Assembly: GCA_963828195.1 (NCBI GenBank)
Contig: CAWHDT010000001.1
Coordinates: 352,001 to 416,000, forward strand
Direction: 5' to 3'
Length of the DNA: 64,000 nucleotides
DNA from: Candidatus Bathyarchaeota archaeon
Lineage (GTDB): Archaea; Thermoproteota; Bathyarchaeia; Bathyarchaeales; Bathycorpusculaceae
The translations under genes and the position numbers were made by a program. Shown piece after piece: positions 1-39,429 of the stretch (positions are counted from its first letter, which is position 1; each line of letters opens with the position of its first letter). The notes under the pieces were generated by a model. That model was not told the DNA's origin and made no database searches. It saw only the letters and a program-made list of their open reading frames with translations.

Positions 1-2
1 GG

Positions 3-2267
3 ACACGGCAAACATACAACAACTCTTTCAGCCAGGGCAGCGATGCTGAAATATGGGCTGGAGTTGTAGCACAAGGCGCTTCTAAGAACATTACCATCAC
101 ATTTTTTGATACAGAAAACAGGGGAGCAGAAGCAGATATTTGTGAATATTCAGGAATAGCAACAAGCAATTTCTTAGACGCAACAGCTACTGCTCAAGGC
201 GGGCCAGTAAATCAAAGCGACACGGGAACTATCGAAACTACAAGGTCTGCAAATGAATTATGGATAGGGGCAGTAGAGATGGCAAACTATGGTCAAACTA
301 CTCCAGCTAAGAACTCCTTTACTTTATTTGATGGTAGTCAATTTCAGGAAGGAAGTTTAGCTTACCTTCAATATTTTGCAAACTCTGCTGGTCCAGCTGA
401 CTCTGGAGCCATCGCGGGTGGCTCAGATTATTATGTCGGCTGCATCGCTGCATTCTTTGAGCAGACGGGTACTATTGTATCCTGCGCTCCCAATCCCGCA
501 CTCGCCAACTCTGCAGTAACTTGCACAGCCATAGTGTATGGTTCTAATCCAACAGGAACAATAACTTGGAGCACAAACAGCAGCACAGGCAGCTTCAATT
601 CCGATACAACCGAACTTGCCTCAGGATTTTCAACAACAACTTATACAGACACAAACGCAGGAACAGTAACAGTTACAGCATCTTACAGTGGAGACTCAAA
701 CAATCCCCCTTCAGTTATAAACACAACTTTAACAATTAATCCTTCATGGCAACTAATTATATCTTCAAACGGCGCTTCAGCTGGAACAGTAAGCTTGGCA
801 TCGGGAATATACAGTTTAGCTCCAATGCCTATAGCCGCATTTCCCAACTCAGGGTATCAATTTCTCTATTGGGTAACTGCAGGCGGCGCAGTTTTAGCAT
901 CCAACTCTTCAACTACAACTGTTGCCGGTTCAGGAAATGGCGCCATAGAAGCATTCTTTTCACAGCGTTATTTAATCAATTCACGCACATTGACCATAGC
1001 TGGTTCAAGCACAGTTCTTCCAATTGCCAACGAAGAAGCAGGTCTATGGCAACCATACTGGAATAACTTGGTATCTCTAAACCCAAATTGGGGAGCTTCG
1101 CAATGTACTTCGCCTGTTCTTCCAGTAGGTCTAGGCAGTGGCACAGCAATCCCTGAATTGTCCGCCGGCATAGCTGACATCGGAGAAATGTCAAGACCAC
1201 CGTACAACGCAACCAACGAGTGGCTCGCACCATCAATGAGTGGCATGCAGCTATGGGCAGTCGGCATCGATAGTATCGCGATCGTTTTGAGTGCTTACAT
1301 GAATTGGTTCCCAACTAATTTGACTACATTGCAAGTTGCAAACCTATTTGCATCAAATCCAACTACCGGAGCACAATATACTACTTGGAATGACTTTTTA
1401 ACTGCAAATGGTTTTTCGGCTGTTCACCCACAAGGAGATGCTGACATTAACCGTGCGGTTATGGATCCAACATCTGGAACTTTCGACTGTTTCAACAATT
1501 ACTTTGCCGTACCAAACGGTTTCCAATTTGAGCATAATGCCAACGGCACAGTTGATGGTTCACAGAACATGGCACCGTATACCTACTGCCAAGAAGACAT
1601 TAACATGTACAACACAATAGGGGGACCTAACTATATTGGTTTTATATCCTTAGGGTACTTCCAAGTGTACGGACATATGATCGGCCTTAACGTTTCATAC
1701 AACATCGCTAATCTTCCAAGCTCAACTATCTCTGTTGTTACACCAGCAGTCTGGGGGCCATACGTTGCACCAACACGGGACAACGTTATCTATGCACTTT
1801 CAGACTACAAAGACACTGCAGCTACCGGTCAATACTTTGCATGGACATATCTTTGGGAAGTTACTCCAAGCACTATTCCTACTTGGGGTCCACTGTTAGA
1901 AACAGGAGTCTGGATTGCATACATGAAGGAAGGAAACACCACCCAAGGCGGCACAAGCGACTTTGTCAACGACCAAGGATACATCGAGCTTGACCGTGAC
2001 GACATAGCTGGCGGAACAGTAATTGACGGTGCCCTGCAACCACACGGTATCGGTCAAGGTTTAGCTGCAACTCAGACTCAGTCTATTCCCGACGGCAAAG
2101 TTAACTTCCAAGACTTAACATACTTCGTCTCCGCATACATCGCATACTACGACCGAGGACTATACAATCCATATGCAGACATGAATGCTGACGGCAAAAT
2201 CAACTTCAACGACCTCAAACTCTTCGTATCAGAATACATAACATACTACACAACATACGTACCTTAA
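3..2267 (+). CDS. Secreted multidomain protein, 5'-truncated by the window edge: extracellular beta-domain, Ig-like (Big_3-type) domain, InlB-B/Listeria-Bacteroides-like repeat, PstS-like domain, C-terminal dockerin
   Basis: The frame is open from position 3 (TRQTYNNSF...AEIWAG...ADICEYSG...NELWIGAVE runs into the ATG at 279). PstS motifs GSSTV, GSGTA, MSR, DPTSGTF. Dockerin pair DGKVNFQDL / DMNADGKINFNDL. Confidence 0.85.
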   Translation, partial: TRQTYNNSFSQGSDAEIWAGVVAQGASKNITITFFDTENRGAEADICEYSGIATSNFLDATATAQGGPVNQSDTGTIETTRSANELWIGAVEMANYGQTTPAKNSFTLFDGSQFQEGSLAYLQYFANSAGPADSGAIAGGSDYYVGCIAAFFEQTGTIVSCAPNPALANSAVTCTAIVYGSNPTGTITWSTNSSTGSFNSDTTELASGFSTTTYTDTNAGTVTVTASYSGDSNNPPSVINTTLTINPSWQLIISSNGASAGTVSLASGIYSLAPMPIAAFPNSGYQFLYWVTAGGAVLASNSSTTTVAGSGNGAIEAFFSQRYLINSRTLTIAGSSTVLPIANEEAGLWQPYWNNLVSLNPNWGASQCTSPVLPVGLGSGTAIPELSAGIADIGEMSRPPYNATNEWLAPSMSGMQLWAVGIDSIAIVLSAYMNWFPTNLTTLQVANLFASNPTTGAQYTTWNDFLTANGFSAVHPQGDADINRAVMDPTSGTFDCFNNYFAVPNGFQFEHNANGTVDGSQNMAPYTYCQEDINMYNTIGGPNYIGFISLGYFQVYGHMIGLNVSYNIANLPSSTISVVTPAVWGPYVAPTRDNVIYALSDYKDTAATGQYFAWTYLWEVTPSTIPTWGPLLETGVWIAYMKEGNTTQGGTSDFVNDQGYIELDRDDIAGGTVIDGALQPHGIGQGLAATQTQSIPDGKVNFQDLTYFVSAYIAYYDRGLYNPYADMNADGKINFNDLKLFVSEYITYYTTYVP

Positions 2268-2479
2268 ACTTTTTCAACAAAATAGAACACAGTTTTATAT
2301 CTTAAACATTGTTTTTTTTGCAGTTTTTTAGGGCAGTTTGTAATGTTATTTCTGGCTTAACATTCCCTTTTTAATCTGCAAGGTACTAAATAGTTTTAGT
2401 GGGAACTATTTGTATCCCTATTTTTTACGAGGGCAAATATCATATATCTTCATATTCATTTAGATAGTGGAGAAGGACA

Positions 2480-3541
2480 ATGAATAAGAAAACAGCTTTT
2501 GCAGGACTTTTAATTTTTTTCTTAATAGGCATGATGTTTTCAACTTTTAATGGAATGTCGAGCATCGCCAAAGCAGATACTCAAGGCGATTCAAATGGTT
2601 CCTCTTCTGATATAGTTGTTGACAACGTCACTTGCTCACAAATTTTTGTGGACCAAGGAATGCAAGCAAACCTGCAAGCTGGTGTAGAAAATTTGGGGTC
2701 GCTTCCCGCCAACTTTAACCTTACCTTCTACGGTAACGGCGTTCCTCTAAACACGCAGCCGGTTGCGTTAGCCGGTAGCAGTTCATCGCTGGTTTCATTC
2801 TTATGGAATACGACAGACTTCGCTTTGGGCAATTATACTTTGAGTGCGAGTGCTTGGTCAGTTACAGGTGAAGCAAATGTGGCTTATAGCAATTGCACCG
2901 GAAGCACTCTACTAGTTTCTTGCGCCGGCGATATGATCGGTCACTGTGCAGTTGACTTTTCAGACCTAACTTGCTTTGTTAGCGCTTACATAAATTATAC
3001 CGAAACTGGAGGAAGTTCATACTATCCTATTGCGGACTTGAACCATGACGGAAAAATAGACTTTTTGGACTTACAGCTCTTTGTCGCCGATTATATTTCG
3101 TTCTATAGTAATCCAACGCCGTTTGGGCACTGCGGGTTAGCGGTTACAACCACTTTCGAACAGACCACGTACACTCAAGGCGAACCAGTCAACTTTACAA
3201 TAAACATAATCAACCTAACCGACAAAACAATAACTTTTACCTACATGCCTTCGACCTTTGACTTCATAGTTTACAACGCTACAGGAATAATCTACCGATA
3301 TTCATTCGAAAGAGCATATCCGATGTGGGCTGAAATATATTCCTTGACGCCAGGCGCAACTTTATCCAACGAGTTTGAATGGGACCAAACCTCCAACCAG
3401 TATTACTCACCAGTGGCTTCGCCATTAGCACCTTCGGCTTCTTGTCCTGAATTTCCGGTATCGCCCGGAACCTACTATATCGTCGGTGAAGCGCTTGGAA
3501 TGCAAACCGTTCCCCAGCAAATTACCATAACTTCAGGATAA
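2480..3541 (+). CDS. Secreted CARDB-like domain + internal dockerin + BsuPI-like (proteinase inhibitor-type Ig) domain
   Basis: Signal peptide; DIVVDNV...VENLG...WNTT...GNYTLSA (CARDB); DLNHDGKIDFLDL (dockerin); TYTQGEPVNFTINIIN...FDFIVY...FEWDQ...PGTY (BsuPI-like). Confidence 0.75.
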   Translation: MNKKTAFAGLLIFFLIGMMFSTFNGMSSIAKADTQGDSNGSSSDIVVDNVTCSQIFVDQGMQANLQAGVENLGSLPANFNLTFYGNGVPLNTQPVALAGSSSSLVSFLWNTTDFALGNYTLSASAWSVTGEANVAYSNCTGSTLLVSCAGDMIGHCAVDFSDLTCFVSAYINYTETGGSSYYPIADLNHDGKIDFLDLQLFVADYISFYSNPTPFGHCGLAVTTTFEQTTYTQGEPVNFTINIINLTDKTITFTYMPSTFDFIVYNATGIIYRYSFERAYPMWAEIYSLTPGATLSNEFEWDQTSNQYYSPVASPLAPSASCPEFPVSPGTYYIVGEALGMQTVPQQITITSG

Positions 3542-7831: not shown

Positions 7832-9661
7832 TTACTCTTCATTGCTTAAATAGGTCTGCAGTTTTTCAATTTCTTGGCTCAGCATACCGAAATAGTTTTT
7901 GAGTGTTTCTTGGCGTTCTTCAATATGTCTGTTGAATTCTATTAGCAGTCGGTCAAACTGTTCCTTTTCCAGTTTAAGCGCTGTACTTAATGCTTGGATT
8001 ATTTTTTCGTTGTCTGCGATTCGGTTTCTGTAAGCTATAATTGCCTGTAACGTTGGTTCTTGAGGTAGATCGCCTGCCAAATTAGGTTTAGCAATAAGAT
8101 CTGATGTGTCTTCGATATCAATTAATTTCGTCTTTGCATTTTCCATTTCTTCACGAACCGATCCGAAGTAGTTTTCAAGTGTTCTCTCTCTCTCATCCAC
8201 CAGTTTATTTAGTTCTATCAGGTCTTGGGCAAGTTGCTCTCTCTTAGACTTAAGCGCGGTTTTTATAGCGTGGATTCTTTTCGCGGCACTTGAAACGCGG
8301 TTTAAATGAGCCAAAGTTTCATCAGCTGTCGGCTCCTGAGCTGAGGCAGGTTCTAAATCGGGTTTACCTACTTCTATAGTGGCTGCGAATTTGGATTGAG
8401 GTTCCATTATTTCTTTTAGGTTTGTTTTCGACATAATTGTCGCTTCCATTACTTTTTCTTGGGCTATTTTTGGAGTTGGGGCATTTAATTGCAGCGCTGG
8501 TTGTTGAGTGGTTTCTTGAGGTACCGTTGACGAAATAAGCACTGGCGTTGCTGACTGACCATTTTCTGGAGTGGATGTTTCTGGGTTAAGTGTTGAGGCT
8601 GTTGAAGATTGAGTGGTGGGTGTTTCATCGGTATTTGTAGAGTGATTTCTTCTCAAGAACAACGTGAGAATTGTGAATGTAAAGATTCCTGTTGCTATTA
8701 GGAGCCATGAGAAGAGGCTTACGGTATTTTCCACACTGTTAGGCGTTGGGGTAGGTCCAGATGTTGGCGTTGAAGAAGACGAAGGCGTGGGTGTCGATGA
8801 GGAAGTGGGTGTAGGAGTGGGATTGGTAGTTCCATCACTACTGGCAATTGTGAAAGTTGCGGTTTGGTTTTCTGCCATTGGTATGTTTATGCCGGCATAG
8901 GTTCCTGAGTTTATTGCTACGCTGATTTCGGCTTGGCCTGCGGTTGCGTTGTCGGGAATTTGGAGGATGGTTGATAACTGAGTTTGATTGGAGTTTGCTA
9001 TTTGGCTGTTTTGAATTTCTGTTTGGTTAATTATTTGACCCGTAGAATCTTGCAAGCTGAAAGTAACGTTTGCTGTTTGGGCTTGTCCTGGATTGTTTAT
9101 TGTTGCGTTAATTGAAACAAAGTCGCTGGGGGAAAAGACGGTATCGTTTTGGCCTTGTGAATTTGCGAGGTTGATGGCAGTAGTTTCAAGGTCCCATTGA
9201 GCTGTAAAGTTTAGACTTTTCTGAATAATGCCGTTGGTTGTTTGTATGGTTGCTATGGCTTGCCAAGTGCCAACCAGTAAGCTTTCATTTTCGCTTGCAA
9301 TTGGAAGACGGAATGAAAAACCTGCTTCCCCAGTGGTGTTTGTTGTTTCTATTCTGGTGATGGCAGTTTGGGAATTAGAATTTTGGGGGCCAGTTACGTT
9401 AAAGTAAACTAAGATGTCCGGTTGGGATGCATTGCCGTAAGTTACCGTTGCTAGGAGTTGAATTTGGTCGAAGGGTGCAAAGGTTGTGGTTACGTTGTTT
9501 TTGTTATTTTCTGCGGTAAGGCTCATTGCCCATTGGTTGTTTGATGTGTTATTTTGAGCGTGGGCCACGTTTAATGTTTGAGTTATTGCAAGTGAAAGAA
9601 TTAAAATTAGGAGAACGTTTAAAATCCGGTAGCACGCCTTTGAATTCTTCTGTCTTCTCAT
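7832..9661 (-). CDS. Single-pass membrane protein: extracellular two-domain module shared with the cohesin proteins, P/T linker, TM, cytoplasmic tandem coiled coils
   Basis: Signal peptide; FAPFDQIQL...FSFRLP...GTW...IPDNATAGQA module; TM WLLIATGIFTFTILTLFL; two ~70-aa repeats PTxx...LENYFG/LKNYFG. Starts 10 bp after pstA. Confidence 0.85.
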   Translation of the reverse strand: MRRQKNSKACYRILNVLLILILSLAITQTLNVAHAQNNTSNNQWAMSLTAENNKNNVTTTFAPFDQIQLLATVTYGNASQPDILVYFNVTGPQNSNSQTAITRIETTNTTGEAGFSFRLPIASENESLLVGTWQAIATIQTTNGIIQKSLNFTAQWDLETTAINLANSQGQNDTVFSPSDFVSINATINNPGQAQTANVTFSLQDSTGQIINQTEIQNSQIANSNQTQLSTILQIPDNATAGQAEISVAINSGTYAGINIPMAENQTATFTIASSDGTTNPTPTPTSSSTPTPSSSSTPTSGPTPTPNSVENTVSLFSWLLIATGIFTFTILTLFLRRNHSTNTDETPTTQSSTASTLNPETSTPENGQSATPVLISSTVPQETTQQPALQLNAPTPKIAQEKVMEATIMSKTNLKEIMEPQSKFAATIEVGKPDLEPASAQEPTADETLAHLNRVSSAAKRIHAIKTALKSKREQLAQDLIELNKLVDERERTLENYFGSVREEMENAKTKLIDIEDTSDLIAKPNLAGDLPQEPTLQAIIAYRNRIADNEKIIQALSTALKLEKEQFDRLLIEFNRHIEERQETLKNYFGMLSQEIEKLQTYLSNEE

Positions 9662-9671
9662 CTTTTTACAC

Positions 9672-11081
9672 TTATTGCCCCGTGATTTTCTTAGTTAAAT
9701 AGTTTCTTGCAATTAACGCAACAATGCAGATTGCTAAATATATCAAAACAAGATAGAATGCAGCCGCGCATACTACACCGTATTGCAAAAAAGCGGCGTT
9801 CGTATTAGGAGGCCCGGCGCCAAAGATCATTAAACTTGGTGCCTGCCAAATGAATACAGGCAAGTTTGGAATTTGCGTATGTAAACCAAACAGTTGGCTT
9901 AATGGTGGCAAAATCGTGGCTTTTCCGTTATCACCTATTACTCCCGCTTGGCTAACGTTCCCTACTGGGGTCCAGCTGGCGGTTAATGCTACAACTATTG
10001 TTTCTCCGATAGCTGATCCGAAGCCCAACAAAATTCCAGTTATTATTCCAGGTAACGCAGCAAAAAGTACTGCGTGTCGTGTCGTCTGCCATTTTGTTGC
10101 TCCAAGTGCAAAGGAGGCTTCTCGATAAGAGCCTGGTACGGATCGAATTGATTCTTCCGCTATTCGAATGTTCCATGGTAGAATCATGAATGCCAACGAT
10201 ATTGATCCTCCTATCAAAGTAAATCCCCAATGTAGAAATATGACAAAAACTGCCGCTCCTACTAAACCAATCACAACTGATGGAACTCCAGCCAGAGTTT
10301 CGACAAAATATCGGATAGTGATCGTAAATTTATTTTGACTTGCGTATTCTGAAAGGTATATAGCGGCTCCTAAACCTAGTGGTATAGCTATAAATTCACA
10401 AAAACCCGCAAGAAGTAAGGAACCTATTGCATACGGCAGTAATCCCCCAATGGAACCTTTGTTTACGCCTTCGATTACTTTAGTGGTCCAGGTAAATCCC
10501 CAATTTGAACTTGTGAAAAATGTCCAAGAAAGATAAGGTGATGCTCTCACTGCTAAGTAGGTGATCATACCTATCAAGATGCCTGCACAAATTAATCCCG
10601 ATAACCTTAAACCGAATTTTGCCAAGTTTTCTGTAACTATTGGCAGGTCTTTTGATTTAACTGAGGTATTTCTTCTTTTGTTGATTTCAATTGCAGCTGC
10701 TACAGCGGATAAAACAGTAATAATTAGGGCAAATTCGATATTTAAATTTCCTGAGACTGCCAATAATAGCGCTGTCACGCTGGACAATATTGACAATTTC
10801 CATCCATACGAATGCCCTTCCAAAAGAAGGTAACCTGTGGCAAATAAAATTAATGCTGGCCCCATTATCAGCAGCGAGTATGTTGTGTCAGCAACTAATC
10901 TATCAATAGTTGTTTGACCGAAGCCCTCTATTTGGATAGAATTAATAAGGTGAATTGCACCGGGCAAAGCCACAGCTACTCCTGCAGCAAATAGCAGGGC
11001 ACCTGCTACAAGGTTTTCCTTTTTCCTTTTCTTTAAATATCCCCATAGTTTCGTTGTTTCTTTTTTTAAGTTGTAATTCAT
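9672..11081 (-). CDS. pstA: Phosphate ABC transporter permease PstA with an extra N-terminal membrane domain
   Basis: AAIYLSEYA, LAGVPSVVIGL, LPWNIRIAEESIRSVP..YREASFALGATKWQT, AIGET. Confidence 0.93.
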   Translation of the reverse strand: MNYNLKKETTKLWGYLKKRKKENLVAGALLFAAGVAVALPGAIHLINSIQIEGFGQTTIDRLVADTTYSLLIMGPALILFATGYLLLEGHSYGWKLSILSSVTALLLAVSGNLNIEFALIITVLSAVAAAIEINKRRNTSVKSKDLPIVTENLAKFGLRLSGLICAGILIGMITYLAVRASPYLSWTFFTSSNWGFTWTTKVIEGVNKGSIGGLLPYAIGSLLLAGFCEFIAIPLGLGAAIYLSEYASQNKFTITIRYFVETLAGVPSVVIGLVGAAVFVIFLHWGFTLIGGSISLAFMILPWNIRIAEESIRSVPGSYREASFALGATKWQTTRHAVLFAALPGIITGILLGFGSAIGETIVVALTASWTPVGNVSQAGVIGDNGKATILPPLSQLFGLHTQIPNLPVFIWQAPSLMIFGAGPPNTNAAFLQYGVVCAAAFYLVLIYLAICIVALIARNYLTKKITGQ

Positions 11082-11106: not shown

Positions 11107-11973
11107 CTATCCTTTTGTTTTGTTTCTGCTTGCTGTGAGAGTTCTTATTACCAAATTGGTAAGTGCACACATGATGAAGAGAATAATTGCGCCCCCGAAA
11201 ACTAGACTGTAAATCGAGCTTCCGGGTTCGAAAGTGTCTTGTGTAGCTCTCGTCGCGATCCATGCGGTGAGGGAGTTGGTTTGGACAAATGGACTGAGGT
11301 TAATTGACGGTGGAGTAATTTGGCCGATTACCCATATTACGGCCATTGTTTCTCCTATGGCATTTGCGAAGGCTAGAACAATTGACGTGATTATTCCAGA
11401 CGATGCGCTTGACATTAGGACTCGAGTTGTCGTCTGCCATTTTGTTGCTCCCATTCCTAGAGATGCTTCTCTTAAATCTCCGGGTACTGCTCTTAAAGAA
11501 TCTTCTGAAACGCTTGTAATTAGTGGTAACGACATTATTCCAAGAACTATCCAGCCAACTAAAGTGCATTTTTCCGCATTCACGATTCCGAAGACACTTA
11601 AGTTAGCACATAAAATGATGAAACCTAAAAAACCGATGATGACTGATGGAAATCCGTTTAAGACTTCTAGGGTTGGTTTTATGATGTTTCTTATTCTTTT
11701 ATCAGCAAACTCCGCCAAGTATATTGCGCAGGGAATTCCGATAGCTACTCCTAATATTATGCCGCCAACGGCCAGGTATAACGTATCAAACATGTAAGGA
11801 ACCATCGGGTATATCGGGGAGCTGTTAAATCCATTAGCGATAAACTCGAATATTGTTGAGTACCCGTTAATTATTAAAAAAAACACTATGAAGAAAACTA
11901 TGCCGATTGAAGAGACAGCGCAAGAAAGCAAAGCTGCTTTGATCAAGTTTTCTTTAAGAAGCTTTTTATTCAT
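11107..11973 (-). CDS. pstC: Phosphate ABC transporter permease PstC
   Basis: AIYLAEFA, GFPSVIIGF, SEDSLRAVP..LREASLGMGATKWQT, AIGETMAV. Confidence 0.93.
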   Translation of the reverse strand: MNKKLLKENLIKAALLSCAVSSIGIVFFIVFFLIINGYSTIFEFIANGFNSSPIYPMVPYMFDTLYLAVGGIILGVAIGIPCAIYLAEFADKRIRNIIKPTLEVLNGFPSVIIGFLGFIILCANLSVFGIVNAEKCTLVGWIVLGIMSLPLITSVSEDSLRAVPGDLREASLGMGATKWQTTTRVLMSSASSGIITSIVLAFANAIGETMAVIWVIGQITPPSINLSPFVQTNSLTAWIATRATQDTFEPGSSIYSLVFGGAIILFIMCALTNLVIRTLTASRNKTKG

Positions 11974-29941: not shown

Positions 29942-32900
29942 ATGAGAAGGCTGTCCAAAGTAAATGCCCTGTTAGCGCTTGCTATGACATTTATCATACT
30001 TTTTTCAAGCATTAACTTGGAAGGAGCATTAACCTTGACCCACAAAACGGTTTTGCCACCCCAAACAGCAAACATTATGACCTCTGTTGCTTCTTATACC
30101 TTCACGATAACTGGAGCCCCGTCTTCAGCGATTGCCGGTCAAAGCTTCAGCGGCATAACAGTAACCGTCTATAACTCCAATGACAAAGTTGCAACCGGCT
30201 TCAAAGGATGCGTTTATTTCACATCAACCGATCCTAAAGCAACCTTGCCATACACGGCTCAATGCGAATACACTTTTACAACTGGTAGCAAGGGCGATAA
30301 AGGGGTTCACACTTTTTCAGGTTTTAACCTAGTGACTGCTGGCTCCCAAACCATAACGGTAACCGACGTGTCAAGCTCCGCAACCACAGGAGCAATAACA
30401 GTAAACGATGCTTCTCCTGTCAGTATTGCAATTTCTCCGGGAACCGCAACAGTTACTGCAGGGTCAAAGCAAACATACACAGCGACAGCCGAAGACTCCT
30501 ACGGTAACCCATGGAACATAACATCATTAGCAACTTGGGGCATAAGCACTGGCGCCGGCGGTTTATGGTCAGGGAACGCCTATACTTCCGCTAAAAACGG
30601 AACTTGGACTGTTACCGGCAGCTACTCAAGTTTATACGCCTACGCGTCCCTGACCGTAAATCCTTCATCAGCCACAAGCATTACGCTGTCTCCTCAGTCG
30701 GCGACGATTGTTGCTGGTTCTTCGGAGGCTTTTACGGCTACTGCAAGCGATAACTATGGCAATACCTGGGTCGTATCTGGTTCAACGGGTTGGGGTATAA
30801 GCTCAGGTGCCGGGGGATTATGGACTAACAACGTATATTCTTCCCAGAAGGCAGGACTTTGGACGGTCACAGGCACTTTTGGAACTTTATCTGCCTCAGC
30901 CTCTTTAAACGTTACCCATGGTTCAGCTTTCAACATTACAGTATTTCCGCAATCAGCAACAATTGCTGCTGGTTCTCCGCAAGCTTTTACGGCTACCGCA
31001 AACGATAATTTCGGTAACACTTGGGATGTCACTAATTCAACAACTTGGAGTATAAGCTCTGGTGCTGGCGGTTCATTTTCCTCTGGTAACTACACTTCCG
31101 CCATTGTGGGAATTTGGAACGTAACAGGTACCTATAGCGGGCTATCTAACTCCGCAACCTTAACGGTTGGTTACTGTCTCACATTTAAAATCGCAATCAC
31201 CCCACAAACTTCGACTTTAACAGCTGGCGCTTCAGAAGCATTCACGGCAACTGCATCCGACATTTACGGCAACGTATGGGACGTAACCTCTTCAACCGAT
31301 TGGACCATTAGTGGCGGTGCCGGCGGCTTATGGTCGGGGAACACCTATACTTCATCAACATCTGGCACCTGGACCGTCACAGGTACGTATAAAGAAATTT
31401 CGGATTCAGCTACCCTGACGGTTAATAACGGTTCGCCGATCAAAATCGTCATCGGAACGGCAAATGGCTCAGTTACAGCCGGATCAAACGTAACCTTCAC
31501 GTGCACTGCAATAGATAGTTGCGGCAATGAATGGGATGTTTCTACTTTAACATCATGGAGTATAAACAGCTCTGCTCGCGGTACATGGTCTGCCAACATC
31601 TACACTTCAGCCACAGCCGGTACCTGGACAGTAACGGGCACGTTCGGAACACTATTCAATACATACTCATTAACAGTCATTCACTCATCGCCCGTCAGCA
31701 TCATACTCTCCCCTCAAACTTCAACTCTAACAGCCGGCTCTTCAGAAACTTTCACAGCTACTGCCAGCGATAACTACAGTAACAATTGGGACGTTTCTGG
31801 CGCCACTGTTTGGAATATATCTTCAGGCGCAAATGGTTTATGGTCTGGCGACGTTTACACTGCAGCTAAGGCGAATGCATGGATTGTGACCGGCATATTC
31901 GACGGGCTATCAGGCACATCGTCCTTAACGGTTACTCATGGGTCTGCGACTTCGATACTGGCAAGCCCAAAAACATCAACTATCACGGCGGGGACAACTC
32001 AAACTTTTATTACCACAGCATTCGACAACTTTGGAAACAGCTGGGATGCAACATCATCAGCGACGTTTCAAGTAGACCCACAGGCAAGTGGTTCATTATC
32101 CGGCAATATCTATAGCTCCTGTAACGCTGGAACATGGACTGTAAACGCAGAAAGCTTAGGCTTAACTGATACAGCCTCATTAACAGTTACCCATTCATCA
32201 CCAACCAGCATTGACGTTGATCCGGATTCTGCTTCAATAACCGCAGGTCAAACCCAAAATTACAATGCGACCGCGTCGGATGCCTATGGTAATGTTTGGG
32301 ATGTTACGAGCTTAACCGCATGGAATGTGAATTCTAGCGCGGGTGGCAGTTGGTCTAACAATATTTATACATCTGCTCTTTCAGGAAGCTGGGCTGTCAC
32401 TGGTACCTACGACAATCTTTCCGATTATGCCTCCTTAACCGTAAATCATGCTTCAGCAGTCAGCGTTGCTGTCTCCCCTCACTCGGTAATAATGAATTCA
32501 GCCTCCACGGAAGCATTCACCGCTACAGCCTCAGACCAATATGGAAACCAATGGGATGTTAGTAATTCGGCAAGCTGGAATGTAAGTTCAGGTGCTGGAG
32601 GCTCATGGACCGGTAGCACTTATACTTCCGCCAATGTTGGTAATTGGGCAGTCACGGCAAAAGTCAGTGGTCTATACGGCACTGCAAACCTAACTGTCAA
32701 CCATGGAACTGCACTTAAAATCACAATAACTCCAAGCTCAAATTCAATTACTGCAGGCCAAACCCAAACTTTTACCGCAACTGCATCCGATTCTAACGGC
32801 AACAATTGGGACATAACCAACTCTACAACATGGAGCATCGATTCAAACGCTGGTGGTTCCTGGTTTGGAAACACTTACACTTCGAACAAAGCCGGAACAT

Positions 32901-34192
32901 GGATTGTAACTGGCACATACTCAGGTTCCTCCAGTACTACTTCCTTAACTGTAAATGACGGAGCCGCCGTCAGCATCAACGTGGGTCCATCCTCACCTAA
33001 TGTAATAGCTGGCTTTCCTCAAACCTTTACAGCTACAGCTACCGACTCTTGCGGTAACACATGGGACGTAACCAGCTCAACAGTCTGGACTATAGATGAC
33101 GGCGCAAGCGGCACCTGGACAGGAAACACATGCACCCCCGAATTATCAGGAACATGGAACGTCACAGGTACCTTCAACGGGGTGTCCAAGTCAGTTTTCC
33201 TGACAGTAAATCATAGCACCGTAACAAGCATTCAGATTAACCCTTATGGCGCTTCAGTTACAGCTGGAACGAATGAGACCTTCACAGCCACAGCATTTGA
33301 CAGTTTTGGCAATTCTTGGGACGTTACCAGTTCAACAATCTGGGACATTAACTCGGGCGCTGGTGGCTCTTGGTTTGGCAACGTTTACACCGCAGCTGAA
33401 GCAGGAACCTGGAATATTACCGCAGCCGTTGACAACTTGCAATTCACAGCAACAATGATAGTCAGTCACGGTTCAACCGCCTCAATTGCCCTATCACCAA
33501 AAACGCAAACAATCAACTCAGGTTCCAGCCAAGCGTTCACGGCAACAGCTTACGATTCTTGCGGTAACTCTTGGGATGTAACTAACTTAACAATGTGGAA
33601 CATTGATGCAAATGCTGGTGGATCTTGGTCCAATAACGTTTACACTTGTGGCAAAGTGGGAAGTTGGACAGTTACAGGAACACTTAACTCCTTATCAGAC
33701 ACAGCAATATTAACCGTCAACCACGGTTCTCTATTTAACATTACAGTAAGCCCCGCTAACGTTTCAATTACCGCTGGCGCAAACCAAACCTATACCGCCA
33801 CAGCATCGGATTCTAGCGGAAACACATGGGATGTTACAACCTTAGTAGCTTGGCTTGCCACTGCGGGGGCTGGAGGTAATTGGACAGGGAACATCTATAC
33901 ATCTTCGAATCCAGGCACTTGGATAATAACAGGCACATTAACAGGTGTATCAGGGGCAGCCGTATTGGCGGTCAATAGTTCTGCTCAAGCACCGTCGTAT
34001 TCATGGTTGGATCTCAACCATGACGGCGTCGTCAACATAGCAGACATCCTTTACTTCCTTAACGCCTACCAAAACTTCGGAAGCAAAGGCATTTGCGACC
34101 CAACCTGCGATTTCAACCATGACTGCCAAATAAACTTCGAGGACCTAGTAATCTTCATAATGGCTTACATAGCATATCAAGAAACAGCTTAA
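29942..34192 (+). CDS. Large secreted protein: N-terminal Ig-like domain, 14 tandem Big_2-like repeats, C-terminal dockerin
   Basis: 14 repeats of ~85 aa, consensus I.ISP....TAG....FTATA.D..GN.WDVT....W.I...AGG.W..N.YT....G.W.VTG; DLNHDGVVNIADI / DFNHDCQINFEDL. Confidence 0.9.
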   Translation: MRRLSKVNALLALAMTFIILFSSINLEGALTLTHKTVLPPQTANIMTSVASYTFTITGAPSSAIAGQSFSGITVTVYNSNDKVATGFKGCVYFTSTDPKATLPYTAQCEYTFTTGSKGDKGVHTFSGFNLVTAGSQTITVTDVSSSATTGAITVNDASPVSIAISPGTATVTAGSKQTYTATAEDSYGNPWNITSLATWGISTGAGGLWSGNAYTSAKNGTWTVTGSYSSLYAYASLTVNPSSATSITLSPQSATIVAGSSEAFTATASDNYGNTWVVSGSTGWGISSGAGGLWTNNVYSSQKAGLWTVTGTFGTLSASASLNVTHGSAFNITVFPQSATIAAGSPQAFTATANDNFGNTWDVTNSTTWSISSGAGGSFSSGNYTSAIVGIWNVTGTYSGLSNSATLTVGYCLTFKIAITPQTSTLTAGASEAFTATASDIYGNVWDVTSSTDWTISGGAGGLWSGNTYTSSTSGTWTVTGTYKEISDSATLTVNNGSPIKIVIGTANGSVTAGSNVTFTCTAIDSCGNEWDVSTLTSWSINSSARGTWSANIYTSATAGTWTVTGTFGTLFNTYSLTVIHSSPVSIILSPQTSTLTAGSSETFTATASDNYSNNWDVSGATVWNISSGANGLWSGDVYTAAKANAWIVTGIFDGLSGTSSLTVTHGSATSILASPKTSTITAGTTQTFITTAFDNFGNSWDATSSATFQVDPQASGSLSGNIYSSCNAGTWTVNAESLGLTDTASLTVTHSSPTSIDVDPDSASITAGQTQNYNATASDAYGNVWDVTSLTAWNVNSSAGGSWSNNIYTSALSGSWAVTGTYDNLSDYASLTVNHASAVSVAVSPHSVIMNSASTEAFTATASDQYGNQWDVSNSASWNVSSGAGGSWTGSTYTSANVGNWAVTAKVSGLYGTANLTVNHGTALKITITPSSNSITAGQTQTFTATASDSNGNNWDITNSTTWSIDSNAGGSWFGNTYTSNKAGTWIVTGTYSGSSSTTSLTVNDGAAVSINVGPSSPNVIAGFPQTFTATATDSCGNTWDVTSSTVWTIDDGASGTWTGNTCTPELSGTWNVTGTFNGVSKSVFLTVNHSTVTSIQINPYGASVTAGTNETFTATAFDSFGNSWDVTSSTIWDINSGAGGSWFGNVYTAAEAGTWNITAAVDNLQFTATMIVSHGSTASIALSPKTQTINSGSSQAFTATAYDSCGNSWDVTNLTMWNIDANAGGSWSNNVYTCGKVGSWTVTGTLNSLSDTAILTVNHGSLFNITVSPANVSITAGANQTYTATASDSSGNTWDVTTLVAWLATAGAGGNWTGNIYTSSNPGTWIITGTLTGVSGAAVLAVNSSAQAPSYSWLDLNHDGVVNIADILYFLNAYQNFGSKGICDPTCDFNHDCQINFEDLVIFIMAYIAYQETA

Positions 34193-34483: not shown

Positions 34484-36736
34484 ATGAATAGAGCTACAAG
34501 TAACGGTGTAAGTATCATTGTAATTATGCTGATCTCTTTCTTCGGTGCATCTTTCATCGCATCAGCACACGCTTCGAATATCGAAAATAATTCTTCACTG
34601 ATTGGGAGTCTAGAGTCAGTCATTAACTCAGTCAATTACACTAGCGACATAGAGGCTACATACCAAGGAATGATGGTTGGGAAAACATCAATGCAGCAGT
34701 TGATAAACGCTTATAATTCACTGACCACGGCGACTGGATTTGGCGGGAGCGGCGAGGACGGTTTGCAGTATGCCACAGAAGTTTTGCAGTGGACGCCTAT
34801 AATGCAAAAGTTAGGTTACGAAAACCAAACCACTATAGAGTGGGCGTTAAACAGCCAAGTAATGATGAGCGACGGTTTGCCTTATTGCTATAACGACGGC
34901 GCGACTGAGGCGTTTCTCGTTTATGACAGGTACCTGATTTTAGCCTACGGTTACGCGATCCAGTACAATTACGAGTTAAACAAATGGAATTTGACGGAAG
35001 CATACAACAGCTTCAAAGCGGGCGTCACTGAAAGCGCGGCGCCCGCACTTTTATGGTTAGATTCTACTGGTGCACCATTCACGATATCTTATGGACCTAG
35101 ATATTATGACGAATGCGGTGAAACTATTGACTGCTTCTTAGATTTCTTCAGTTTAGGTATACCCACGGCACTTAATGACGCGATGGCTACTTGGCTTTGG
35201 ACAAACAGTAACCTTTGGAGCGGAACAAACTACAACTATGCTTTGAACTGGCCTGGTTACGAATGCGAAGCAGGAGGTTTCCTGCAGATAGCGCTAAAAC
35301 TATTGTCTGATAACAGTTCAATGCCTGACACTTCTAACTTGTTATGCGATATTGAAAATAGGTTTCTTGCAGAACAATTTTCTAGTCCGCAGTGGTTGGA
35401 CGGTGTAGTTTGTCATATGGCTGCAAACAATCCACAGCTTAGGCTTGAAAACACGGTTATGGCTTGGGCAGCGATACTTGGAAGCTACGGAGAACTAACC
35501 AGCATATATCAAATTGACGTGCAAGACATGCTGATGGGAACCGGCGGAACAGCGACGCCGGCGTGGCAGCAGCTTCTGCAAAGCTCTCTCTGTGCGGCTC
35601 TAACTTTCCATATTTGCTTGAGCACTCTGACGATTCTGGACCAGGCAACGACTCTACAGCTACAGGAGCCGACTTACTGTTCATGCCTAGGGATTGTTCC
35701 GCAAACCGCAACCCTCGCTGTGCCTTTAGAGGAAAATTCATACGAGGACATCCAAAGCCTATTTGACCCTGACCTCTTCAACATAAACTTAACCGCCGAC
35801 GTCGTCAACGTGTCCTTAGCTACAGCGGGAACTTTAGATTTTCAATTCAACCAGACAGTTAAGTGCAGCTTCAGCAGCCCAGGAGTCTACAGTGTTCAGT
35901 TCTCGCCTGATTGGAACACTATATTGAATATTACTTTCCTATCAGCACTGCCATCGAACAGAGTGTTCATGTACTCTGCGATGCAACTAGCACTCCAGGC
36001 AAATTACGTAATTATTTCTTCTACTGATCCTAACTCACTTATCAGTCCCTCAGGTAATGTTACGGTGAATGCAAACTCTTCGCAAACATTCACGTATTCA
36101 GCAAATGCTGGTTGCACTTTAGCAAGTGTTCTCGTGGATGGCTCTTCAGTTCCAATAACCGGCAGCTACACTTTCAACAATGTTCAAACAAACCACACAA
36201 TTTCCGTAACAAGCACTGTAAACGGCGCATTGAATCCAATTCAAATAACTAACATGCAACTCCCACCTATAGCAACACAAACAGGATTCATGATGCCAAT
36301 TAATGTAACATTAACTAATCCAGACTCATTATCTGAAACTGGCAATATTCAATTATCTGCCAATTCAATCTTATTATTTAGCACTAATGTTACACTGAAT
36401 GCTTTACAAACTGAAACAATTCCATGCTACTTTAATACAAGCCTCTTAGCTGTTGGAAACTACACTTGTTCAGTCAAGTTAAATACGACAAGCCTATCTG
36501 CGCAAAGCACAGAAGCCGCAGCGGTGCAAATTGGAGTAACTTATCCAGGCGACTTGAACGGAGACTTCAAGGTTGATTTCAACGACCTAATTATTTTTGT
36601 CTCTGGCTACATTGTTTTTAACACCAATGGTGTCTATACTCCTGCAGTAGATTATAACCAGGATGGCAGAATTAACTTCAACGACCTGAAGCTTTTTGTG
36701 CAGTATTACATAACACGCTCCGTAAACAGATCATAA
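34484..36736 (+). CDS. Secreted putative (alpha/alpha)-barrel enzyme (GH76-like), InlB-B-like repeat, CARDB-like domain, dockerin
   Basis: Helical aromatic-rich domain with PRYYDE; ISPSGNVTV...QTFT...VLVDG...YTFNNV..NHTI; GDLNGDFKVDFNDL / DYNQDGRINFNDL. Apparent internal paired frameshift (see findings). Confidence 0.7.
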   Translation: MNRATSNGVSIIVIMLISFFGASFIASAHASNIENNSSLIGSLESVINSVNYTSDIEATYQGMMVGKTSMQQLINAYNSLTTATGFGGSGEDGLQYATEVLQWTPIMQKLGYENQTTIEWALNSQVMMSDGLPYCYNDGATEAFLVYDRYLILAYGYAIQYNYELNKWNLTEAYNSFKAGVTESAAPALLWLDSTGAPFTISYGPRYYDECGETIDCFLDFFSLGIPTALNDAMATWLWTNSNLWSGTNYNYALNWPGYECEAGGFLQIALKLLSDNSSMPDTSNLLCDIENRFLAEQFSSPQWLDGVVCHMAANNPQLRLENTVMAWAAILGSYGELTSIYQIDVQDMLMGTGGTATPAWQQLLQSSLCAALTFHICLSTLTILDQATTLQLQEPTYCSCLGIVPQTATLAVPLEENSYEDIQSLFDPDLFNINLTADVVNVSLATAGTLDFQFNQTVKCSFSSPGVYSVQFSPDWNTILNITFLSALPSNRVFMYSAMQLALQANYVIISSTDPNSLISPSGNVTVNANSSQTFTYSANAGCTLASVLVDGSSVPITGSYTFNNVQTNHTISVTSTVNGALNPIQITNMQLPPIATQTGFMMPINVTLTNPDSLSETGNIQLSANSILLFSTNVTLNALQTETIPCYFNTSLLAVGNYTCSVKLNTTSLSAQSTEAAAVQIGVTYPGDLNGDFKVDFNDLIIFVSGYIVFNTNGVYTPAVDYNQDGRINFNDLKLFVQYYITRSVNRS

Positions 36737-36836
36737 CAACCCATATCCCGCGACGTCGAGGTCGTCACCGCAAATTGATAGTCTTGATCAAATTGATTTT
36801 CAAAAATGAACCCTTATCTGCTTCGAAGATCGCTCA

Positions 36837-37400
36837 TTAGCTAGATGATAATTTAACGTTGATTACTTTCTCAGGGACTGTTTGTGAGTCAAACTTTAAT
36901 AAAATAAAATAAAACAAAATTCCATTTAAGATTAACCCTGTAATTGACGCGGGTGAACCCATTATTCCGGAAAGGAGAAATTGAATAAATTGGAAGCAAG
37001 CGGCTAAGGCAAATATCATCAATGCGGCTAAGCGGGCAAAGTTGTGCCTGACCCAAAGCCCTAAGCCTACGAGAAGAAGGTCTAATCCAATAAACCATGA
37101 AATTAATCCAATAATTGAAACACTTGTATTAGTAAGACTGCCCATGCCAAAGGGAACCCCGGGTACCCAACTTATGGCTGATGCAACTGAGTTGATTGCT
37201 GAGCTTGTTTGTTGAACCTGATTTGCATCAGTTATCATTAAGTAAAGTCCACCGACGATTAAAACCACCCCAAATGTGATAACTAATTTGGTAACCAGAT
37301 CCGTGATAAAGCTGAAATTTGATAAATATTTTCTAACTTTATTTATTGAATCAGTAATTGGAAAAAAATAATTGTTTAATTCTTTCTGCATTTCTTTCAC
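36837..37400 (-). CDS. Integral membrane protein (about 4 TM), translationally coupled to phoU
   Basis: GTGA overlap with the phoU stop; hydrophobic helices; GLGLWVRHNFAR. Confidence 0.8.
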   Translation of the reverse strand: MKEMQKELNNYFFPITDSINKVRKYLSNFSFITDLVTKLVITFGVVLIVGGLYLMITDANQVQQTSSAINSVASAISWVPGVPFGMGSLTNTSVSIIGLISWFIGLDLLLVGLGLWVRHNFARLAALMIFALAACFQFIQFLLSGIMGSPASITGLILNGILFYFILLKFDSQTVPEKVINVKLSSS

Positions 37401-38452
37401 ACAAGTATTGAATCCACAGTCAAGTTAAGTACAATTTCGGCGATGTCACAAGCGTACTCAGCAGTTCTCCTGATGCTTTCAATGATTAAACGTGAAGTGG
37501 CACCGTCTTCAGGGTCCATTTGCGATGATTCAACCGCTTCTTTTTCTAAGGCGGCAATTCCTTTAATACTCTCTACAATATTTTCAGCTGAGTTGTAGTC
37601 TTGCTTAAAAAGTGATTCCATCGCGGTATCAAACATTTTAATGGCAACACAGCTCATGTTCCCAATTTTTTCTAAGGTGACATTATTCAAATTGTGTTTG
37701 AGTGCTAACACGTTCTCGGCAATATTGACAGCGTGGTCAGCGGTTCGTTCCACCGACTTAATTACCAGACGGTAACCTAAGCAGTCTTTGCCACTTGAAA
37801 GACCAATTTCCTTGGTTATTCGCGGGTTCTGTATCGCTGCTCTCAACAATCTAGTAACGTAAAGATTAAATCGATCCACCTCATTGTCAGTTGACATTAC
37901 CTCTTTTGCCAACAATTTGTCGCCTGCTGTAAGACCAAGTATTGCATCTTTATGCATTGACGTTGTGATAATGCTCATCCTTCTCAAAGCACTTTGAATA
38001 GTCAATTCGGGGTAGCTTAAAAGAACTTGCAATATTAATTGGGAGGACGTGTCAGTCACGATTTCAGTTCCAACAAGCATCCTCCGAACAAAACCCTTCA
38101 TATCGTGCCTTTGCCTTGTAGATAACTGTTGTTTTTCAGATTTAACGTGGATTGAATTATACCCAGCTAAATAAGCGGAAACGATCTTTCTTATGATCAT
38201 GTCAGTTTCATCATCTGCAGAAACTATAATCACCGCTTCGTCCAGCCTTCGCTGCACTGCAGGATTCGGAGGAACAATTGTTAACAACCCCCCATCTTCT
38301 GCACGGAGTTTAATAAAACTCCCCTTTTTTAATTGATTTTCAACAATCCACCTTTTGGGTAGCGATATAATGTACGTAGACCCCCCAGTAAATTGCACTT
38401 TTCTAGTTTCTTCGTCAAATTTTGCCTGCCACAAACTCAACCCTTCTCCCAA
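37397..38452 (-). CDS. phoU: Archaeal phosphate uptake regulator: AbrB/SpoVT DNA-binding domain + PhoU domains
   Basis: RKVQFTGGSTYIISLPKRW; DNEVDRF; ERTADHAVNIA; RRTAEYACDIAE. Confidence 0.9.
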   Translation of the reverse strand: MGEGLSLWQAKFDEETRKVQFTGGSTYIISLPKRWIVENQLKKGSFIKLRAEDGGLLTIVPPNPAVQRRLDEAVIIVSADDETDMIIRKIVSAYLAGYNSIHVKSEKQQLSTRQRHDMKGFVRRMLVGTEIVTDTSSQLILQVLLSYPELTIQSALRRMSIITTSMHKDAILGLTAGDKLLAKEVMSTDNEVDRFNLYVTRLLRAAIQNPRITKEIGLSSGKDCLGYRLVIKSVERTADHAVNIAENVLALKHNLNNVTLEKIGNMSCVAIKMFDTAMESLFKQDYNSAENIVESIKGIAALEKEAVESSQMDPEDGATSRLIIESIRRTAEYACDIAEIVLNLTVDSILV

Positions 38453-38676
38453 TGACCGCTAGCTTCTATATGTTGCCCTATTGAGCAACGTAATAAATCC
38501 CTTGTCTAAAGAGATTATATATAAAATCATAGTTTATGACGGCTATTTAGGAAACCAATATAACCCAAAGTTCCCACACATCCACAAAGACGGCATAGGA
38601 GAAATCACCATCTTTGCTTACGACACTATTCTACAAAACTCCACAAAAAATAATTACCAGACCGTAGGGGAAAAAT

Positions 38677-39429
38677 TTGGGAAAAGTTGAAACCCGAAAG
38701 TTTAATCTCTGGTTTAAAAGTAATCACGTACTAAAAGATGTAGATTTCAAAGTTCAAGAAAGAGCCGTTACCGCCATTATGGGTCCTTCTGGATGTGGTA
38801 AATCAACACTTTTAAGGTCAATTAATCGAATGAATGATCTCATTATTGGTTGCCGCACGCAAGGAGAGATAATATTTGATGGACAAAACGTCTATGCCGA
38901 TGGCAGCAACGTTTATGATTTGAGGCGTAGAATAGGAATGGTTTTTCAAAAGCCTAATCCTTTTCCCAAGTCCATATTCGAAAATGTTGCTTTCGGTCCA
39001 CATATTCATAATACCGCGAAGGGTGAAAAGCTCAACGAGGTTGTTGAAAAAAGTCTTAGAGGCGCGGCGTTATGGGACGAAGTGAAAGATCGCTTAAATG
39101 AAAGCGCTCTTTCCCTTTCAGGAGGCCAACAACAAAGGCTTTGCATAGCACGCGCTTTGGCGGTAGAACCTGAACTGATTCTGATGGATGAACCCTGCAG
39201 CGCTTTAGATCCGGCTGCAACATCTCGCATCGAATCTCTAGTTAGAGTTCTCAAAGAGAAATACACAGTCATTATTGTTACTCACAACCTGCAACAAGCA
39301 ATGAGGGTTTCGGAATATACTGCTTTCATGTATGTAGGTGAACTAGTAGAGTTTAATGACACCAAAACTCTTTTTGAGAAGCCAAGAAGTGAGTTAACTG
39401 CAAATTACATAGGTGGCAAATTCGGATAA
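38677..39429 (+). CDS. pstB: Phosphate ABC transporter ATPase PstB
   Basis: [56 protein letters not shown]. Confidence 0.97.

Follow-up and report, generated by a model that had tools for sequence, protein, structure and literature searches.

The 64,000-nucleotide stretch analyzed here (the window; G000:C1:352001-416000) comes from an uncultured soil/peat archaeon of the Bathyarchaeia and carries a cohesin-dockerin surface set inserted in the second phosphate-uptake (pst) gene set of its host. This set is probably a surface-tethering system: its conserved core cargo would be the phosphate-binding protein (PstS) of a dedicated second Pst transporter, and in this genome it would have been expanded into a general display platform. 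Bathyarchaeia are an abundant uncultured group, and archaeal cohesin-dockerin pairs outside cellulosomes, known since the Archaeoglobus genome, have had no function assigned to them.

The window was scanned by open reading frame (ORF) listing, Pfam, and NCBIfam, and the source genome (2.83 Mb in 9 contigs; 96% complete) was searched in six frames with the cohesin family PF00963 (curated cutoff, 24.1 bits) and the dockerin family PF00404 (22.9 bits). An earlier interpretation made from the letters alone (the sequence-only reading) had described 12 co-oriented cohesin/dockerin genes inside a pst locus, and the ORF and family scans agreed. All 12 are on the plus strand at positions 13739 to 36736, between pstA-pstC and a PstS-dockerin gene on one side and the genes for an AbrB-PhoU fusion and PstB on the other. 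They start at 13739, 16618, 19131, 20141, 21586/21607, 22423/22597, 23969, 25055, 26835, 28331/28589, 29942, and 34484, and the product of each has an N-terminal segment resembling a signal peptide, along with a cohesin, a dockerin, or both. The later starts chosen in the earlier reading (21607, 22597, and 28589) fit signal-peptide homology with 25055 and 26835.

The earlier tally (11 cohesins in 9 genes; 7 dockerin proteins) was exact by PF00963, PF00404, NF041540, and alignment. PF00963 found 13 cohesins genome-wide, 11 of them inside the window: two each in 13739 and 16618 and one each in 20141, 21586, 22423, 23969, 25055, 26835, and 28589. Scores were over the cutoff for 11 of the 13 and for 9 of the 11; the two window cohesins below it were the first of 13739 (22.9 bits) and the second of 16618 (18.6 bits). 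One of the two matches outside the window is 0.9 kb upstream, and the other is a cohesin-linker-helix protein on contig C5, the sole cohesin outside the island. PF00404 found 10 dockerins in the genome, 5 of them over the cutoff. Six are in the window, three over the cutoff (19131, 32.5 bits; 34484, 26.2; 12212, 25.1) and three under it (3-2267, 21.0 bits; 29942, 20.6; 2480, 20.0). The seventh window dockerin, at the C terminus of 28589, was not reported by PF00404; it gave a weak NF041540 match (E = 0.005) and aligns with the others. Cohesin and dockerin profile matches reached E values of 1e-11, which indicates that they are not chance.

Twelve of the 13 cohesin matches and 9 of the 10 dockerin matches of the 2.83-Mb genome are concentrated in one island of about 50 kb, which reaches about 7 kb beyond the upstream edge of the window, up to polyphosphate genes. 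The further dockerin genes noted upstream in the sequence-only reading are in the window (3-2267 and 2480), and three more dockerin proteins are encoded beyond its edge, with the polyphosphate genes upstream of them. In one of these upstream proteins, a dockerin and a cohesin are adjacent and the N-terminal region, which has no Pfam match, was read by eye as a beta-helix. The polyphosphate cluster (PPK2, Ppx/GppA, CHAD-metallophosphoesterase-HD, PPK1, and CYTH) occupies L001 1968-9840 (G000:C1:335968-343840), 8 to 16 kb upstream of the window.

The modeled fold of one cohesin and the sequences of the dockerins indicate that the window modules are real cohesins and dockerins, as had been proposed. 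A model of 13739 (14-row alignment; mean predicted local distance difference test [pLDDT], 74) was compared with about 48,000 PDB representatives. For its second cohesin (residues 199 to 360), which superposes as a nine-stranded beta-sandwich, the top 18 structural matches were all solved cohesins, at Z 12.6 to 15.5 and with root mean square deviations (rmsd) of 2.1 to 4.5 Å over 128 to 148 residues. The best were 4uyp (Z 15.5; rmsd, 2.2 Å; 134 residues aligned) and 1ohz (Z 15.4), and the noncellulosomal cohesin of Archaeoglobus fulgidus, 2xdh, matched at Z 14.9 with 26% identity. The cohesin dyad 3l8q matched residues 35 to 358; the first cohesin was covered only there and was modeled at lower confidence. 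After its cohesins, 13739 continues with a PKD-like domain, a macroglobulin-like domain (Z 11.9 to 2p9r), and a sandwich of the CARDB/GH2-Ig-like kind; the last part of the protein, the macroglobulin-like/CARDB-like region, is called the stalk below.

Pairwise identity set the cohesin classes. Class A comprises the first cohesin of 13739 and those of 22423, 25055, 26835, and 28589 (62 to 76% identity), with the first cohesin of 16618 as a distant member (about 40%). Class B comprises the cohesins of 21586 and 23969 and the upstream cohesin (50 to 54%), with 20141 as a distant member, and class C comprises the second cohesins of 13739 and 16618 (67%). Among dockerins, that of 34484 resembled the dockerin of Clostridium thermocellum CelS (1daq; sequence E = 7.6e-4), and its two helices were modeled at a pLDDT of about 88 to 91. 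All 10 aligned dockerins have two loop-helix repeats, the second loop following the canonical D/N-x-N/D-x-D-G-x-I/V-x-F-x-D, and they fall into several types. In both PstS dockerins of the window, the first calcium loop lacks its first ligand positions in the alignment.

The core cargo is encoded at 12212..13684 (+), a PstS-type phosphate-binding protein with a short signal-like N terminus, the binding domain directly after it, a linker, and a C-terminal dockerin (21.2 bits in Pfam; 25.1 in the genome search). The protein scored 29.9 bits with PBP_like_2 (cutoff, 27) and 43.9 bits with TIGR02136 (equivalog cutoff, 206.6). A profile of the PstS-dockerin family matched solved phosphate-binding proteins at E = 1.5e-8, with GSGT, MSR, and SGT motifs aligned; these positions, putative phosphate-ligand contacts, are invariant or nearly so in 30 family members. 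The island PstS presumably binds phosphate, and its signal peptide is probably cleaved. The family comprises 106 related clusters, and printed tails inspected by eye showed a dockerin-like tail in all but about 5 truncated or frameshifted members. A second PstS cargo protein of 844 amino acids has its 3′ part at window positions 1..2267 (+) and starts 267 nucleotides upstream (full ORF, L022 233-2767). It consists of its own signal peptide, an N-domain without assignment, Big_3_5, InlB-B-repeat-like, and PstS-like domains (TIGR02136, 37.1 bits), and a C-terminal dockerin (16.9 bits in Pfam, 23.8 with NF041540, and 21.0 in the genome search). In another Bathyarchaeota genome (L013 7409-9919, +; protein P0089), PstS, a dockerin, and one or two cohesins are fused in a protein of 826 to 837 amino acids, possibly a frameshift artifact of the assembly.

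The genes around the insert encode the rest of a Pst transporter. Paralogues of pstC (11107..11973, −; TIGR02138, 192.3 bits; cutoff, 196.45) and pstA (9672..11081, −; TIGR00974, 189.3 bits; cutoff, 193.45) scored just under the equivalog cutoffs, with the Pst model as the best match in each case, and pstB (38677..39429, +; TIGR00972, 388.7 bits) scored over its cutoff of 343.2. The putative regulator at 37397..38452 (−) is an AbrB/MazE-type DNA-binding domain fused to PhoU (MazE_antitoxin, 36.9 bits; PhoU, 79.5 bits). Contig C5 carries a canonical operon, pstS-pstC-pstA-pstB-phoU, followed by a MarR-like gene. The PstS encoded there has a hydrophobic helix (anchor) at its N terminus and a Pro/Thr-rich linker (about 65 residues) but lacks a dockerin, and the PhoU of this operon is without the AbrB domain. 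The island PstA has an N-terminal hydrophobic extension of about 150 amino acids that is absent from the canonical C5 PstA (303 amino acids); a long PstA form (425 to 479 amino acids) recurs in related loci.

Cohesins matched in 22 of 40 relatives searched. All four same-genus genomes with multicohesin clusters have the cluster between pstB and pstC/pstA on one contig; in one of them, the pstB match contains internal stop codons. A profile of the PstS-dockerin family yielded 17 public loci from one-genome-per-species contigs, which were scored by profiles of the window cohesins and dockerins and by BLASTP with window proteins. Fifteen of these loci are labeled Candidatus Bathyarchaeota/Bathyarchaeia, and two are labeled bacterial. 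In 16 of the 17, the PstS-dockerin gene has pstC/pstA divergently upstream and one or more cohesin genes downstream; the remaining locus is an upstream PstS paralogue on a contig already counted. Polyphosphate genes are within 10 kb in 8 of the 17. An even draw of 401 genomes across the class, with the PstS type called at E ≤ 1e-50, contained the type in 8 (G000, 5 of 40 others of the genus, 1 of 12 of the sister genus, and 1 of another family), and each of the 7 besides G000 has a cohesin match no more than 5 kb away on its contig. The system therefore keeps together as a unit, but its distribution is patchy. The synteny check (4 of 4 same-genus genomes, 16 of 17 loci, and 7 of 7 further genomes) extends the pst linkage noted in the sequence-only reading beyond this genome, and the possibility that the linkage is an accident of this genome was rejected on that recurrence within the genus, in public loci, and in the class-wide draw. 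Several of the 17 loci are fragmented by frameshifts. The two loci in bins labeled Limnocylindrales and Acidoferrum (L009 and L010) have the same gene order and are either misbinned archaeal contigs or products of transfer; the flanking genes of L010 are not diagnostic.

Compact relatives narrowed the set further. The same-genus locus L024 spans about 10 kb and contains a 36837-like gene, AbrB-PhoU, pstB, three cohesin genes, PstS-dockerin, pstC, pstA, and a 7832-like gene. All three cohesin proteins end in a hydrophobic helix and a basic tail, and PstS, with its dockerin-like tail, is the sole dockerin protein of the locus by the window-derived profile. PF00404 at E ≤ 0.05 found no dockerin in the whole L024 genome, which is weak evidence because the same model also misses the L024 PstS tail. 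Between pstCA/phoU and pstB, L010 encodes PstS-dockerin, a cohesin-PKD-PKD-helix protein, and a 239-amino-acid protein that combines a cohesin with a dockerin (43 bits), and L025, from another family, has a layout similar to these two. Because of these compact forms, we take the irreducible set to be a Pst permease and ATPase, PhoU, PstS-dockerin, and a membrane-anchored cohesin; the 23-kb insert of the window is an expansion of it.

Four insert genes encode membrane anchors. The most widely conserved kind across related loci is that of 20141..21487 (+), with a class B′ cohesin (28.9 bits), two PKD domains (PKD_4, 102.4 bits), a Ser/Thr/Pro-rich linker, and a C-terminal transmembrane (TM) helix ending in WLRKRT. 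Directly upstream of this cohesin-PKD-TM gene in most loci is a gene of the 19131 type (here 19131..20135, +), encoding a secreted stalk-like domain with a dockerin (30.4 bits in Pfam). By Pfam and sequence, the products of 21607..22383 (+; class B cohesin) and 22597..23439 (+; class A) consist of a cohesin, a linker, a PEFP motif, a TM helix, and a basic tail, and that of 23969..24760 (+; class B cohesin, 35.0 bits) has the same order with a Pro/Thr/Ser-rich linker. The PEFP-helix-K/R tail of these three has homologues in L004, L006, L009, and L015, with PEYP in L018. The PEF-CTERM model TIGR03024 scored 13 bits on the 22597 tail (cutoff, 23) and did not match the two other PEFP tails; two exosortase/archaeosortase-family genes are present in the genome.

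The remaining cohesin proteins carry no membrane anchor. Two-cohesin proteins are encoded at 13739..15937 (+; classes A and C, a PKD-like domain, and the stalk) and 16618..18813 (+; classes A′ and C, the same stalk; cohesin, 51.6 bits). Single class A cohesins joined to a stalk are encoded at 25055..26725 (+; from Pfam, PF00963, and alignment) and 26835..28445 (+; 34.4 bits). None of these four has a dockerin. The product of 28589..29728 (+) is an adaptor, with a class A cohesin (26.3 bits), Big_3_5 (44.7 bits), and a C-terminal dockerin (NF041540, E = 0.005). The sequence-only reading had assigned cellulosome roles to these genes; anchors, two-cohesin proteins, an adaptor, and cargo were all recovered, and the hierarchy proved incomplete because the two-cohesin "scaffoldins" have neither dockerin nor anchor.

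The stalk recurs outside the cohesin proteins. The conserved third gene of the pstC-pstA unit (7832..9661, −) encodes 609 amino acids with a signal peptide, a stalk-homologous ectodomain, one TM helix, and a long cytoplasmic tail of 260 residues with two similar coiled-coil-like segments. The stalk module is homologous to this ectodomain (25055 stalk, BLASTP E = 6e-13, 29% identity over 217 amino acids) and partly to 19131 (E = 1e-8). Therefore one module is joined to cohesins, to a dockerin, and, in the pstCA unit, to a TM helix with a cytoplasmic coiled coil. A 7832 homologue adjoins pstA in 15 of the 17 public loci and also in L023 and L024. The small polytopic membrane protein of 36837..37400 (−), cotranscribed with phoU, is likewise kept beside phoU/pstB or pstA in compact relatives, with homologues in L010, L024, and L025.

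The following mechanism is proposed. PstS (12212) would be exported with a dockerin at its end in place of a membrane anchor of its own, and the dockerin would plug into membrane-held cohesins, whether these end in a C-terminal helix (20141) or in PEFP, a helix, and a basic tail (21607, 22597, and 23969). Long flexible linkers would let loaded PstS reach PstC/PstA (11107 and 9672), with PstB (38677) energizing transport. In this genome, unanchored cohesin-stalk proteins, an adaptor, and extra cargo would have expanded the core into a general display platform with PstS as the only constant passenger. The dockerin is read as replacing a membrane anchor because compact relatives carry only PstS-dockerin and membrane-anchored cohesins; we read the contrast with the N-terminally anchored C5 PstS in the same way, as a dockerin that may have taken over the anchoring role. 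Which dockerin of the island pairs with which cohesin is inferred. A complex prediction for residues 34 to 358 of 13739 with the PstS dockerin (residues 420 to 490) gave a score of 0.03 (mark, 0.32) and is neither support nor counterevidence.

Several observations weigh against this tethering mechanism. The PstS dockerin has a degenerate first calcium loop, and in many family members the second loop is degenerate as well; the PstS signal peptide could stay in place as an N-terminal anchor. The TIGR02136 score of 12212 is so far below the equivalog cutoff that the ligand could differ from phosphate. Mechanistically, 13739, 16618, 25055, and 26835 have neither anchor nor dockerin, and their retention at the cell is left unexplained; as a speculation, stalk-stalk association would keep them at the permease. 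The distribution is patchy, at 8 of 401 genomes of the class. Finally, the other cargo is unrelated to phosphate: a GH5 cellulase, an (alpha/alpha)6 toroid, the protein read by eye as beta-helix-like, and Ig arrays.

That other cargo is diverse. The product of 2480..3541 (+) is secreted and combines CARDB (25.6 bits), an internal dockerin (20.7 bits), and a BsuPI-like domain (46.6 bits; all Pfam); homologues recur in L005, L007, L009, L011, L012, and L018. An adhesin-like array of secreted Ig-like repeats, 1,416 amino acids long and ending in a dockerin (NF041540, 24.9 bits; PF00404, 20.6 bits), is encoded at 29942..34192 (+). The gene at 34484..36736 (+) encodes an (alpha/alpha)6 toroid (residues 37 to 495) followed by Ig/CARDB-like domains and a dockerin (22.6 bits in Pfam; 26.2 in the genome search). 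In its model (32-row alignment; pLDDT, 86), the toroid best matched an unsaturated glucuronyl hydrolase (3wiw; Z 14.0) and cellobiose 2-epimerases (Z 13.8), followed by GH105/GH47 enzymes and lanthipeptide cyclases. This is an assignment of fold and not of function, because helical models can attain such Z values through shared architecture. Foldseek with the whole model returned Ig-domain matches only; the toroid was recognized solely by the wider structural search, and a protein-atlas look-up with the N-domain gave no usable match. Bathyarchaeia widely encode this toroid family, joined to dockerin, CARDB, or other tails. The sole dockerin outside the island belongs to a GH5 cellulase on C5 (L021 1962-3590, −; G000:C5:745962-747590; PF00150, 81.7 bits), behind a Pro/Thr-rich linker, and resembles the "NPACDLNHDG" type of the island adaptor proteins. 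Because the cargo includes the Ig giant and the BsuPI-like, stalk-like, beta-helix-like, and GH5 proteins, the display platform is not phosphate specific in this genome.

This cargo bears on two other explanations, both of which we regard as unlikely. One, along the lines of the phosphate-scavenging surface complex of the sequence-only reading, is a multienzyme complex in which dockerin-borne enzymes would free phosphate beside docked PstS, under the control of AbrB-PhoU. The two cargo proteins of PstS type, the pst and polyphosphate genes that surround the island, the AbrB-PhoU gene at its end, and a highly conserved pstC|pstS region with a genome-unique palindrome would all suit such a complex, and cargo domains without assigned function (the 844-amino-acid protein's N-domain, the beta-helix-like protein, and the 34484 toroid) leave room for enzymes. 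However, Pfam and NCBIfam found no phosphatase, nuclease, phytase, or phosphodiesterase in the 11 dockerin proteins of the genome, and PstS is the only phosphate-related dockerin cargo. The one well-modeled cargo that looks like an enzyme adopts a fold usual for glycan-active enzymes, the sole dockerin enzyme with a clear family is the GH5 cellulase, and in compact relatives PstS is the sole dockerin protein. The enzyme complex is therefore only partly supported, since no phosphatase was found among the cargo and the other cargo is structural or carbohydrate-like.

The second, no more probable than the first, is a cellulosome-like polysaccharide-degrading or adhesion apparatus in which the PstS-like protein has a ligand other than phosphate, such as an anionic sugar or a sugar phosphate, and the transporter takes up the products. 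It would account for the GH5-dockerin protein, the toroid resembling GH88/GH105 enzymes and epimerases, the beta-helix-like dockerin-cohesin protein (by eye), the long Ig arrays, and the scores of PstS, PstC, and PstA under their equivalog cutoffs. A glycoside hydrolase (GH) family was found in 1 of the 11 dockerin proteins (GH5), and one more has the toroid fold found in glycan-active enzymes; yet the toroid match at Z 14 is near the stated background for helical models, no cohesin protein carries a carbohydrate-binding module (CBM) in Pfam, and compact relatives have no glycoside hydrolase in the locus. PstB over its equivalog cutoff, the synteny of PhoU and five polyphosphate genes, and the conserved phosphate-binding motifs also argue against a sugar transporter. 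An S-layer-like or sheath-like envelope lattice built from the shared stalk, with cohesin-dockerin pairs as connectors and the pst neighborhood secondary, is very improbable: the stalk is indeed fused to cohesins (13739, 16618, 25055, and 26835), a dockerin (19131), and a TM helix with a coiled coil (7832), and the best Foldseek match of the 13739 model is the archaeal S-layer protein 7ptp (E = 1.7e-14), but that match is an Ig-like domain chain with a TM-score of 0.17, many complement/macroglobulin chains score alike, presence in a minority of genus genomes would be odd for an essential envelope, and the tight conserved pst linkage would go unexplained.

The divergent pstC|pstS control region (11974..12211) was strikingly conserved across 13 aligned loci, though their PstS proteins are only 35 to 71% identical. 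Conserved blocks include a TATA-like block between the arms of a short inverted repeat, CTATT...AATAG, and a second block. A perfect 7-4-7 palindrome, TGAACGAGTAATCGTTCA, lies at 12170-12187, about 12 nucleotides upstream of the pstS ribosome-binding site; this is its single occurrence in the window (0.05 expected) and in the whole genome. The sequence of its arms is kept in most loci; in L010 both arms are changed yet still pair. The palindrome could be an operator or a hairpin of the 5′ untranslated region. The position of the AbrB-PhoU gene suggests that the fusion may control the island, with the palindrome linked to AbrB-PhoU only by proximity, and the island may be regulated by phosphate.

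A broader reading of the tethering system is more tentative. Docking may be a further general way to hold ATP-binding cassette (ABC) binding proteins without a closed periplasm: several exchangeable PstS copies on anchored and stalk-borne cohesins around PstCA would form a phosphate "antenna," which AbrB-PhoU would switch at the palindrome according to phosphate status. In this reading, the dedicated permease has an extra transmembrane segment of its own and a stalk-module membrane partner in 7832.

If the antenna reading is true, it would give a concrete physiological role to the long-enigmatic noncellulosomal archaeal cohesin-dockerin pairs. In the present case, the conserved partner is identifiable as the binding protein of a phosphate transporter, in a context kept across diverged soil/peat Bathyarchaeia, so that an open question about these pairs becomes testable at the bench with a dozen small recombinant domains. 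The system suggests how these archaea may compete for phosphate in phosphorus-poor peat, and its cohesins, of three or more classes, would together with its various types of dockerin be a natural orthogonal set for protein-display engineering.

The rest of the window contributes no further cohesins or dockerins. A secreted protein at 39502-40359 (−) has two InlB-B-repeat-like domains, a Pro/Thr linker, and a TM helix, and another at 54509-57346 (+), of 945 amino acids, combines a PQQ-like beta-propeller with Big_3_5; neither has a cohesin or dockerin. Positions 40400-43480 form a gene-poor stretch of 3 kb with small ORFs only, two of them paralogous (68 and 89 amino acids). Scans found no Rfam family and no tRNA in the window and no notable repeat in the 40.4- to 43.5-kb stretch.

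The nearest prior art is the dockerin-tagged ABC binding proteins of anaerobic methanotrophic (ANME) archaea (Chadwick et al., 2022, PLoS Biol, PMC9012536). There, proteins carry as many as five cohesins together with a dockerin, and the ABC substrate-binding proteins NikA/OppA and TroA are common dockerin cargo (PMC9012536). Both systems are archaeal and noncellulosomal, with multicohesin proteins, dockerin-tagged ABC binding proteins, and a function inferred from genomes. In contrast with the ANME proteins described in that main text, the cargo here is PstS inside its own pst set with phoU, the synteny, which includes polyphosphate genes, holds across diverged Bathyarchaeia, compact forms come down to PstS-dockerin and anchored cohesins, and lineage and habitat differ. 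The domain tables of that paper may include a PstS case. The earlier remark that no description of such a system was known was too strong, given these ANME archaea (PMC9012536). A literature search, with matches mostly judged by title or abstract, found no paper on PstS-dockerin or on cohesins or dockerins of Bathyarchaeia.

With the bacterial cellulosome (Acetivibrio/Clostridium thermocellum CipA), the system shares module folds (1ohz, Z 15.4; 4uyp, Z 15.5), multicohesin proteins, a cohesin-plus-dockerin adaptor, cell-bound cohesin anchors, and one GH5-dockerin enzyme. It differs in having at most two cohesins per protein, two-cohesin proteins without dockerins, no CBM family on cohesin proteins (Pfam, E ≤ 0.01), and C-terminal helices instead of S-layer homology (SLH) or sortase anchoring, and its main conserved cargo is a transporter binding protein, not glycoside hydrolases. 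The system is cellulosome-like in its connectors and not in scaffoldin CBMs, glycoside-hydrolase-dominated cargo, or SLH/sortase anchoring.

The AF2375/AF2376 pair of A. fulgidus is described in PMC9012536 as isolated and without an assigned role. Its cohesin is archaeal and noncellulosomal, like those of the window (2xdh; Z 14.9 and 26% identity to the modeled cohesin). Whereas that pair is isolated, the cohesins and dockerins here form an island of 50 kb whose functional context can be identified.

Known ways to hold ABC binding proteins are a lipoprotein anchor, an N-terminal TM anchor, and fusion to the permease. The proposed docking would serve the same task of keeping a binding protein near its permease without a closed periplasm, and the canonical C5 PstS of this genome uses the N-terminal helix solution. 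In contrast with these anchors, the tether here would be a noncovalent plug, in principle exchangeable, with several binding proteins per anchor or scaffold.

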